From Methanomassiliicoccales archaeon (GTDB lineage: Archaea > Thermoplasmatota > Thermoplasmata > Methanomassiliicoccales > UBA472): a stretch of DNA of 64,000 nucleotides. Of the stretch, positions 12,498-12,602 are shown in pieces. Made by a program: the position numbers and the translations under genes. The DNA lies in the NCBI GenBank assembly GCA_038740345.1, contig JAVYMA010000009.1, forward strand, positions 3,017 through 67,016. The letters run 5' to 3'. The first letter of the stretch is position 1; every line of letters starts with the position of its first letter. The notes beneath the pieces are model-generated. The model did not search any database. It worked only from the letters and a program-made list of their open reading frames with translations, and was not told the DNA's origin.

Positions 12498-12602
12498 TGG
12501 GCTCAGCCGGATTCGAACCGGCGAACTACGCCGTGTAAGGGCGTCGTCTGTCAGGAGCGTTGGTGTTGCCAAAGCTCCACATGACCGCTAGACCATGAGC
12601 CC
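12498..12602 (-). tRNA. tRNA-Val (anticodon UAC) with a 32-nt non-canonical intron in the D-arm (12548-12579)
   Basis: Read on the minus strand:
- Acceptor: GGGCTCA/TGAGCCC.
- Anticodon arm: ACGCC-CTTACAC-GGCGT.
- Variable loop: AGTTC.
- T arm: GCCGG-TTCGAAT-CCGGC.
- Discriminator A; no CCA.

The D region carries 32 extra nt. Removing them gives GTCT-AGCGGTCA-TGAC. Confidence 0.8.

Follow-up and report, generated by a model that had tools for sequence, protein, structure and literature searches.

How can a transfer RNA (tRNA) gene whose D-arm is split by a 32-nucleotide (nt) insert still give rise to a normal tRNA? The question is raised by a locus in a stretch of 64,000 nt from a Methanomassiliicoccales archaeon (GenBank assembly GCA_038740345.1, contig JAVYMA010000009.1, positions 3,017 to 67,016 of the forward strand; the whole stretch is here called the window), where positions 12498 to 12602 read, on the minus strand, as a tRNA-Val(UAC) gene. 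Our analysis of the gene, of its fold and of its relatives points with high confidence to a functional tRNA-Val(UAC) of a Methanomassiliicoccaceae archaeon (class Thermoplasmata), in which a 32-nt intron at position 23/24 would be spliced out by protein enzymes. The gene itself is real and conserved, and it is very probably functional.

The minus strand of this segment, quoted letter for letter in a preliminary description of the locus, matches the window exactly. It was recognized by the Rfam tRNA family RF00005 with a score of 58.8 bits (gathering score 29), over model positions 1 to 71; in the Infernal alignment, 34 nt following the D-loop GGU remained as an unaligned insert. On the unspliced window, ARAGORN called no gene at 12498-12602, as had been anticipated for an ordinary scanner. 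When the intron is removed, a 73-nt product remains that ARAGORN reports as tRNA-Val(tac) and that folds as a cloverleaf, with a 7-nt anticodon loop containing U33, a purine at position 37 and the discriminator A73, all expected of a tRNA-Val. The Rfam match, the call on the spliced form and A73 agree with the identity first proposed, tRNA-Val with anticodon UAC. The product, together with the register of a bulge-helix-bulge (BHB) motif described below, likewise agrees with the proposed intron at 12548-12579 and the spliced length of 73 nt. In the gene numbering used here, position 1 corresponds to window position 12602. The gene and its parts are as follows.

12498 to 12602, minus strand: intron-containing tRNA-Val(UAC) gene, 105 nt, no CCA encoded (Rfam RF00005)

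12580 to 12602, minus strand: 5' exon, tRNA positions 1-23 (BHB register; same as the 5' part of the intron-less genes at loci L019, L030 and L055)

12548 to 12579, minus strand: 32-nt intron UGGAGCUUUGGCAACACCAACGCUCCUGACAG, gene positions 24-55 (removal restores tRNA-Val(tac))

12498 to 12547, minus strand: 3' exon, tRNA positions 24-73 (Rfam alignment, BHB register, spliced product)

12535 to 12537, minus strand: anticodon UAC in the 7-nt loop CUUACAC (Rfam alignment, spliced product)

12624 to 12632, minus strand: TATA-box-like element TTTTAATAT, -30 to -22 from the mature 5' end (sequence reading)

12493 to 12496, minus strand: T-run directly 3' of the discriminator base (sequence reading)

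The 5' exon contains the 5' strand of the acceptor stem, U8 and G9, the D-stem strand GUCU, the D-loop AGCGGUCA, and U22 and G23, while the 3' exon provides A24 and C25, G26, the anticodon arm, the variable loop, the T arm, the 3' strand of the acceptor stem and A73. In gene numbering, the acceptor stem (1-7/98-104) encloses U8 G9, GUCU (10-13), AGCG (14-17), GUCA (18-21) and UGU (22-24), then a hairpin (25-34/40-49), UGAC (50-53), AGA (54-56) and CG (57-58), and finally ACGCC-CUUACAC-GGCGU, AGUUC and the T arm GCCGG-UUCGAAU-CCGGC; the discriminator A closes the gene. The upstream element TTTTAATAT is kept at equal distance in nearly all related loci, where the flanking sequence varies, and the T-run that follows the gene probably serves as an archaeal terminator. 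The conserved TATA box and the purifying selection on the exons provide support, of an indirect kind only, for expression of tRNA-Val(UAC) and its charging with valine.

The D-arm and the intron of the precursor can be arranged in a BHB motif of 3-4-3 geometry, in which G18-A21 (GUCA) is paired with U50-C53 (UGAC). Its elements are listed below.

12582 to 12585, minus strand: exon strand GUCA of the central BHB helix (tRNA G19 U20 C20a A21), pairing with 12550-12553

12550 to 12553, minus strand: intron strand UGAC of the central BHB helix (fold, register, covariation)

12579 to 12581, minus strand: 5' bulge U22 G23 U24, predicted cut between 12580 and 12579 (3-nt bulge in the minimum free energy fold)

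12547 to 12549, minus strand: 3' bulge A54 G55 A56, predicted cut between 12548 and 12547 (register, conservation)

12554 to 12578, minus strand: inner hairpin h', a 10-base-pair (bp) stem with one U.C mismatch and the 5-nt loop CAACA (fold, register)

12545 to 12546, minus strand: 3' strand of a minimal outer helix, in which C25 and G26 (tRNA numbering) pair with G18 (12586) and C16 (12587) (covariation)

The inner helix is made of GGAGC/GCUCC and UUGG/CCAA around the U.C mismatch, and the outer helix, in gene numbering, of G17-C57 and C16-G58 only. The precursor folds with -48.2 kcal/mol (z = -4.0), a value that none of 200 shuffled sequences reached. In its minimum free energy (MFE) fold, helix GUCA/UGAC forms, UGU is bulged and the hairpin is present.

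The splicing endonuclease EndA cuts between the second and the third bulged base, in agreement with the AFU and ARMAN-2 EndA-RNA structures, where the 2'-OH of the second bulged base is the nucleophile and the scissile phosphate is that of the third (PMC12397907). With both bulges cut at this point, UG|U and AG|A, ...GGUCAUG would be joined to ACGACGCC... and the spliced D-arm would read GUCU-AGCGGUCA-UGAC; the intron then lies in the D-stem, on its 3' strand, with G23 before it and A24 after it. This product fits the pattern of the intron-less orthologues, ...GGUYAUGACRACGCC.... Taken alone, the window would allow the junction to be read as 22/23 or 23/24, because G23 and G55 are the same base, and in most relatives the sequence by itself allows 23/24 or 24/25. 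Only 23/24 fits all the sequences as well as the rule of cutting after the second bulge base, and the intron is therefore placed there, where the first reading had approximately put it. A loose search for 3-4-3 BHB-like motifs (inner helix of at least 5 bp, outer helix of at least 2 bp, G-U allowed, intron of 12-60 nt) returned 109 of them on both strands of the window, so that a BHB motif alone proves nothing. What makes the case for an intron is the exact register that restores the tRNA, together with the junction of the intron-less orthologues and the covariation.

Related genes were collected by scanning one genome per GTDB species with a search pattern placed in the anticodon loop and the T loop, which gave at least 120 loci, nearly all of them archaeal tRNA-Val(UAC) genes. 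About 100 archaeal tRNA-Val(UAC) genes among the matches listed, including the intron-less syntenic L019, carry a GUCU...UGAC D-stem in which U13 and U22 are mismatched. The D-arm predicted for the mature tRNA is thus the normal one, in line with the initial remark that it has the pattern usual for archaeal tRNA-Val. Among the matches listed, 73-nt intron-less genes were found in other Methanomassiliicoccales (L019, L030, L055 and L097) and in other Thermoplasmata (L009 and L070), and all six read ...GGTCTAGCGGTTATGACAACGCC..., the very junction that follows from the BHB rule. The same matches contain five loci (L018, L029, L034, L067 and L073), all labelled Methanomassiliicoccaceae or Methanomassiliicoccales, with a 105-nt gene and a 32-nt insert at the same site. 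Rfam scores were 70-73 bits for the intron-less orthologues against 54-59 bits for the interrupted genes. L029 is collinear with window positions 8.1-17.3 kilobases (kb) at 66-74% nucleotide identity, which places the window at roughly genus-level distance from the sampled Methanomassiliicoccaceae metagenome-assembled genomes (MAGs). The intron-less loci share the genes of window 15.6-17.3 kb and the tRNA-Arg(UCG) gene, and this shared synteny indicates that the tRNA-Val genes of the window and of its relatives are orthologous.

A metagenome scan, in which both exon edges were required with a gap of 20-50 nt between them, added 36 further contigs with an interrupted tRNA-Val. Counting the window, at least 34 distinct intron-bearing genes are represented in Methanomassiliicoccaceae MAGs and metagenome contigs; the intron measures 32 nt in 30 of the 34, and 29, 31 or 33 nt in the rest. 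The comparison of the intron position across related genomes, suggested at the outset as a check, therefore returned the same site in at least 33 other distinct genes. By this sequence comparison, the 23/24 intron is common to a clade of Methanomassiliicoccaceae and not peculiar to the window genome. Since other Methanomassiliicoccales, other Thermoplasmata and other euryarchaea have no intron at the orthologue, a single gain in the ancestor of a subclade of the family is most likely.

The conservation of the motif was evaluated on an alignment of 30 distinct full-length 105-nt genes, gap-free and with the window included. The introns have diverged to a mean pairwise identity of 64%; between the window's intron and the other introns, identity is 47-66%. 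When the genes are read in the BHB structure, 94% of the cells are paired; shifting the partners by 1-3 columns lowers this to 26-40%, and the observed covariation score was reached by none of 500 shuffles. The central helix is paired in 98.3% of cells; at its pair 20-51, C-G is replaced by U-A in 7 sequences, meaning that a base of the exon co-varies with a base of the intron. Changes on both sides were found in 7 of the 10 pairs of the inner helix. In the bulges, U22, G23, A54 and A56 are invariant, the third base of the 5' bulge is A in 27 of 30 sequences, and the middle base of the 3' bulge is A or G; the outer pair G17-C57 is invariant as well. Register, fold and covariation hence bear out the central helix, the 3-nt bulges and the inner helix GGAGC/GCUCC with its extension UUGG/CCAA as originally drawn. 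The acceptor and T stems, which lie outside the metagenome search pattern, are near-invariant, and their sole variable pair, in the T stem, changes from G-C to C-G.

A separate observation concerns the hairpin of the intron, whose top is more conserved than its lower stem: G33 G34 and C40 C41 are invariant in the 30 relatives, and just beneath them two further pairs are fixed at about 80-90%. The fixed 32-nt length and this conserved apex amount to more constraint than a BHB needs.

Several points weigh against the interpretation given above. The outer helix has only 1-2 bp, so the motif is not the textbook hBHBh', and pair 16-58 is formed in just 12 of 30 sequences (U-A in 9, C-G in 3; C.A in the remaining 18), the window being among those with a pair. 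The MFE fold of the window pairs A54-C57 with GUCU, the 5' strand of the D-stem, instead of leaving the bases bulged, and the BHB conformer has to compete against this alternative. The exon identity of 97% is partly there by construction, since parts of the exons were prescribed by the search patterns. On the enzyme side, neither the window nor the fetched loci yielded a gene for EndA or RtcB, and the alpha'2 EndA expected in this lineage is reported to require a strict hBHBh' motif (PMC5829648, PMC3239211); AFU EndA is poor on an HBh' D-loop intron (PMC5829648). To these points is added that the search for another tRNA-Val(UAC) copy was confined to the window.

The last of them would fit a pseudogene, that is, a tRNA-Val locus disrupted by an insertion from which a functional tRNA is no longer made: a copy elsewhere in the genome would lie beyond that search, ARAGORN made no call at the locus, and the Rfam score is 58.8 bits compared with 70-73 bits in the intron-less orthologues. 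Many MAGs and metagenomes nevertheless carry the interrupted gene, in at least 34 distinct versions altogether, and its introns have drifted to about 64% identity while compensatory changes kept the BHB geometry. The near-invariance of the acceptor and T arms outside the metagenome pattern, with a T-stem pair exchanged on both sides, also argues against decay, as do the conserved promoter element and the synteny with the single tRNA-Val(UAC) that the intron-less relatives show among the matches listed. Slightly less improbable, but still very unlikely, is a different splice register, A21|U22 ... C53|A54, which would produce an all-Watson-Crick D-stem GUCU/AGAC with A22 in place of U22. The AGAC that follows the central helix pairs perfectly with GUCU in the window and in 7 of its 29 aligned relatives, the MFE fold of the window draws this helix, Infernal aligns AGAC as the 3' strand of the D-stem, and ARAGORN accepts the product as a tRNA-Val too. 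In 22 of the 30 sequences, however, the segment reads AAAC and leaves a C12.A mismatch, which means that the GUCU/AGAC helix is not a conserved structure. The cuts would moreover fall outside the positions set by the 3-4-3 BHB rule, inspection of the sequence gave no alternative BHB in support of them, and the intron-less orthologues, like the roughly 100 other archaeal tRNA-Val(UAC) genes among the matches listed, have UGAC with U22. We hold the pseudogene to be marginally less probable than this register.

The least probable of these explanations is that the 32-nt segment is retained as an extra arm of an unusual mature tRNA. It would account for a stable hairpin whose apex (GG/CC and the neighbouring pairs) and length are conserved beyond what splicing alone would ask for. 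Yet G19-A21 are required for the tertiary contacts between D-loop and T-loop, and the insert would sequester them; furthermore, the exact 3-4-3 geometry and the invariant bulge bases are those of an EndA recognition target, and the orthologues function without the insert. Two other kinds of interruption were considered and rejected. A group I or group II self-splicing intron is incompatible with an insert of 32 nt, given a ribozyme core of hundreds of nucleotides, and a split or permuted tRNA gene is incompatible with two exons that are contiguous and collinear on one strand. The Rfam intron families gave no match in the tRNA-Val region.

The reading with the best support is thus the usual splicing of archaeal tRNAs, in this case at an ectopic position, which would call for no new mechanism. 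The tRNA-Val would be transcribed from its own TATA-box promoter, and in the precursor the D-loop bases G19-A21 would pair with the 3' end of the intron to form the 4-bp central helix of the BHB. On one side this helix would be flanked by the stable 10-bp intron hairpin, and on the other by the minimal outer helix, consisting of G18-C25 plus, in the window genome, C16-G26 (tRNA numbering). EndA would then cleave after the second base of each 3-nt bulge, at UG|U and AG|A, an RtcB-type ligase would join ...GGUCAUG to ACGACGCC..., and after ligation the D-stem GUCU/UGAC and the D-loop could form, giving a normal 73-nt tRNA. With the anticodon stem beginning at the next base, the outer pairs may stack on it and in this way imitate the canonical arrangement.

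What enzyme would carry out this cleavage was approached by homology. A phmmer search with M. jannaschii EndA as query (checked against PDB 1A79) against six-frame translations of the window and of the fetched loci gave no match. A database search with a fragment of the A. fulgidus EndA catalytic domain returned 48 mostly short alpha4-like DPANN proteins, none attributable to Methanomassiliicoccales, and a PDB search with the same catalytic domain surfaced no Thermoplasma sequence. Cluster II Euryarchaeota are reported to encode exclusively the alpha'2 type of EndA (PMC5829648), for which a strict 3-4-3 motif is required. The exact 3-nt bulges and the exact 4-bp helix of the Val motif fit this requirement; the outer helix of 1-2 bp does not obviously do so. 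D-region introns are present in two of the four tRNA genes of the window, one of them with the 1-2-bp outer helix. One speculation, which we regard as rather unlikely, is that the subclade gained several D-region introns despite belonging to a group described as strict alpha'2 with 37/38 introns only, either because its EndA was broadened by a new loop or a paralogue or because plain alpha'2 is more tolerant. If this were true, either the EndA of the lineage would have a wider range of substrates, or plain alpha'2 would tolerate far weaker outer helices and ectopic sites beyond what the model of co-evolution between EndA type and intron type allows.

The second D-region intron of the window is found in a tRNA-Thr gene, and the tRNA genes other than tRNA-Val are the following.

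8998 to 9094, plus strand: tRNA-Thr(GGU), interrupted in the D-loop (20/21) by a BHB intron of 25 nt, 9017-9041 (Rfam, 58.8 bits)

6910 to 6983, plus strand: tRNA-Arg(GCG) (ARAGORN; 51.7 bits when a 150-nt region was searched alone)

17477 to 17551: tRNA-Arg(UCG), which with tRNA-Thr, tRNA-Val and tRNA-Arg(GCG) makes four tRNA genes in the window

The BHB of tRNA-Thr has the central helix AGAG/CUCU, the bulges GU|A and AA|A, and the D-stem as outer helix. In its unspliced form ARAGORN miscalled the gene as a tRNA-Gly(gcc) with a 37/38-type intron, and the spliced form is called tRNA-Thr(ggt). The Thr intron is kept in 16 related contigs, with exon-intron covariation from AGAG/CUCU to AGCG/CGCU. 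As for tRNA-Arg(GCG), both whole-window Rfam scans dropped it through filter loss, and other tRNAs could be lost likewise; this gene has U53-A61 where tRNAs almost always have G53-C61.

The tRNA-Val gene stands between two protein-coding genes.

10813 to 12369, minus strand: DPRP (photolyase-related) gene, on one side of tRNA-Val

12713 to 15373: gene for an InhA-like secreted protease, on the other side of tRNA-Val

Genes for NFACT, DUF1015, VIT-family, AIR-synthase-like and PEP carboxylase proteins are found nearby, and the neighbouring genes gave no sign of a mobile element around tRNA-Val. In the window the DPRP gene separates the DUF1015 gene from tRNA-Val. At L029 the DUF1015 gene lies directly beside tRNA-Val, indicating that the DPRP gene was gained or lost at this place.

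Other tRNA-Val(UAC) genes among the matches listed also have ectopic introns. In Bathyarchaeia (L012, L059, L068, L026 and L069) they lie in the D-stem at 22/23 and measure 19-21 nt; in Nitrososphaerales (L025, L027, L064, L112 and L120) they are placed at about 29/30, in the 5' strand of the anticodon stem, with 16-17 nt; and in Methylarchaceae and a related MAG (L038 and L109) they are about 40 nt long and lie in the D-loop. At L066, from Methanobacteriota archaeon BL5_bin.5, a 3' half of tRNA-Val(UAC) has no recognisable 5' half within 60 nt upstream, and the same MAG has an intact tRNA-Val(UAC) on another contig (L015); the half-gene could be a fragment, a split gene or an assembly artefact. 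Two archaeal-type tRNA-Val(UAC) genes lie on short contigs binned as Deltaproteobacteria and Minisyncoccia (L047 and L049), which are probably mis-binned archaeal contigs.

For genome annotation, a procedure restricted to 37/38 introns would report tRNA-Val(UAC) as missing and miscall tRNA-Thr(GGU), as was seen with ARAGORN, and tRNAs missed or miscalled in this way can give the false impression that the genome is incomplete or that its decoding is unusual. The Val intron moreover offers a clean, datable gain at a non-canonical site in Euryarchaeota, with intron-less syntenic outgroups and more than 30 diverged copies in which exon and intron co-evolve. It provides a counter-example to the textbook claim that euryarchaea with alpha4 or alpha'2 enzymes have introns at the canonical position only, a claim already weakened by the supplement of tRNAscan-SE 2.0. 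Its wider reach concerns how the EndA of this lineage handles a minimal outer helix, and a possible burst of ectopic intron gain in the clade.

Non-canonical BHB introns have long been established in archaea, including Korarchaeum and ARMAN-2 (PMC4090602, PMC4033280, PMC3239211), and D-arm introns at 20/21, 22/23 and 25/26 are known from Crenarchaeota, Thaumarchaeota and Nanoarchaeota (Marck & Grosjean 2003; Sugahara et al. 2008; reviewed in PMC4090602). Like these, the Val intron is short, predicted to be spliced by proteins, located in the D-arm and defined by nothing but a BHB where exon and intron meet, with an exon segment forming a 4-bp helix with the intron. The companion tRNA-Thr intron, at 20/21, occupies one of the listed sites; 23/24 is not among the sites named in PMC4090602, whose list ends with "etc.". 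Unlike the known hosts, that of the Val intron is a Thermoplasmata methanogen, a member of Cluster II Euryarchaeota, for which reviews give introns at the canonical position only (PMC4090602, PMC4033280). Both Val bulges have exactly 3 nt, unlike many relaxed crenarchaeal motifs.

The closest precedent by lineage is found in the supplement of tRNAscan-SE 2.0 (PMC8450103), which counts 25 non-canonical introns in Euryarchaeota and whose Table S7 gives, for three Methanomassiliicoccales genomes with 138 tRNA genes, 13 canonical and 6 non-canonical introns. These belong to the same order and the same class of feature as the Val intron, and automated annotation already recognises them; the table consists of counts only and names no isoacceptor, position or conservation. 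Full-text literature searches on tRNA introns or the splicing endonuclease of Methanomassiliicoccales and Thermoplasmata returned no paper describing the Val intron or the introns of Table S7.

Pre-tRNA-Glu(UUC) of Methanopyrus kandleri is similar in that it has a euryarchaeal D-region intron with a BHB variant weak on one side (PMC5829648). It differs by a relaxed HBh' motif, by a canonical intron alongside and by a host with an (alpha-beta)2-like EndA, and its intron is a poor substrate for AFU alpha'2 EndA (PMC5829648), whereas the Val BHB has both 3-nt bulges and only its outer helix is short. By position, the nearest case is the tRNA-Val(UAC) of Bathyarchaeia (L012 and L068), whose intron also interrupts the 3' strand of the D-stem, one base off at 22/23, with a 3-4-3 motif and a 1-bp outer helix. 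That intron has 19-21 nt, shows no obvious similarity when set side by side with ours, and belongs to another tRNA body and another phylum; it is most simply explained as an independent insertion.

Compared with the canonical hBHBh' at 37/38, the Val motif would involve the same predicted enzymes and the same cut rule, with bulges 4 bp apart. The canonical outer helix is the 5-bp anticodon stem, whereas that of tRNA-Val is reduced to 1-2 bp between D-loop bases and positions 25 and 26, and the D-stem, unlike in the canonical case, must melt in the substrate conformer. In conclusion, non-canonical BHB introns are well known, and the Val intron at 23/24 is a further, well-supported case in a lineage where introns of this kind are uncommon but have already been counted.

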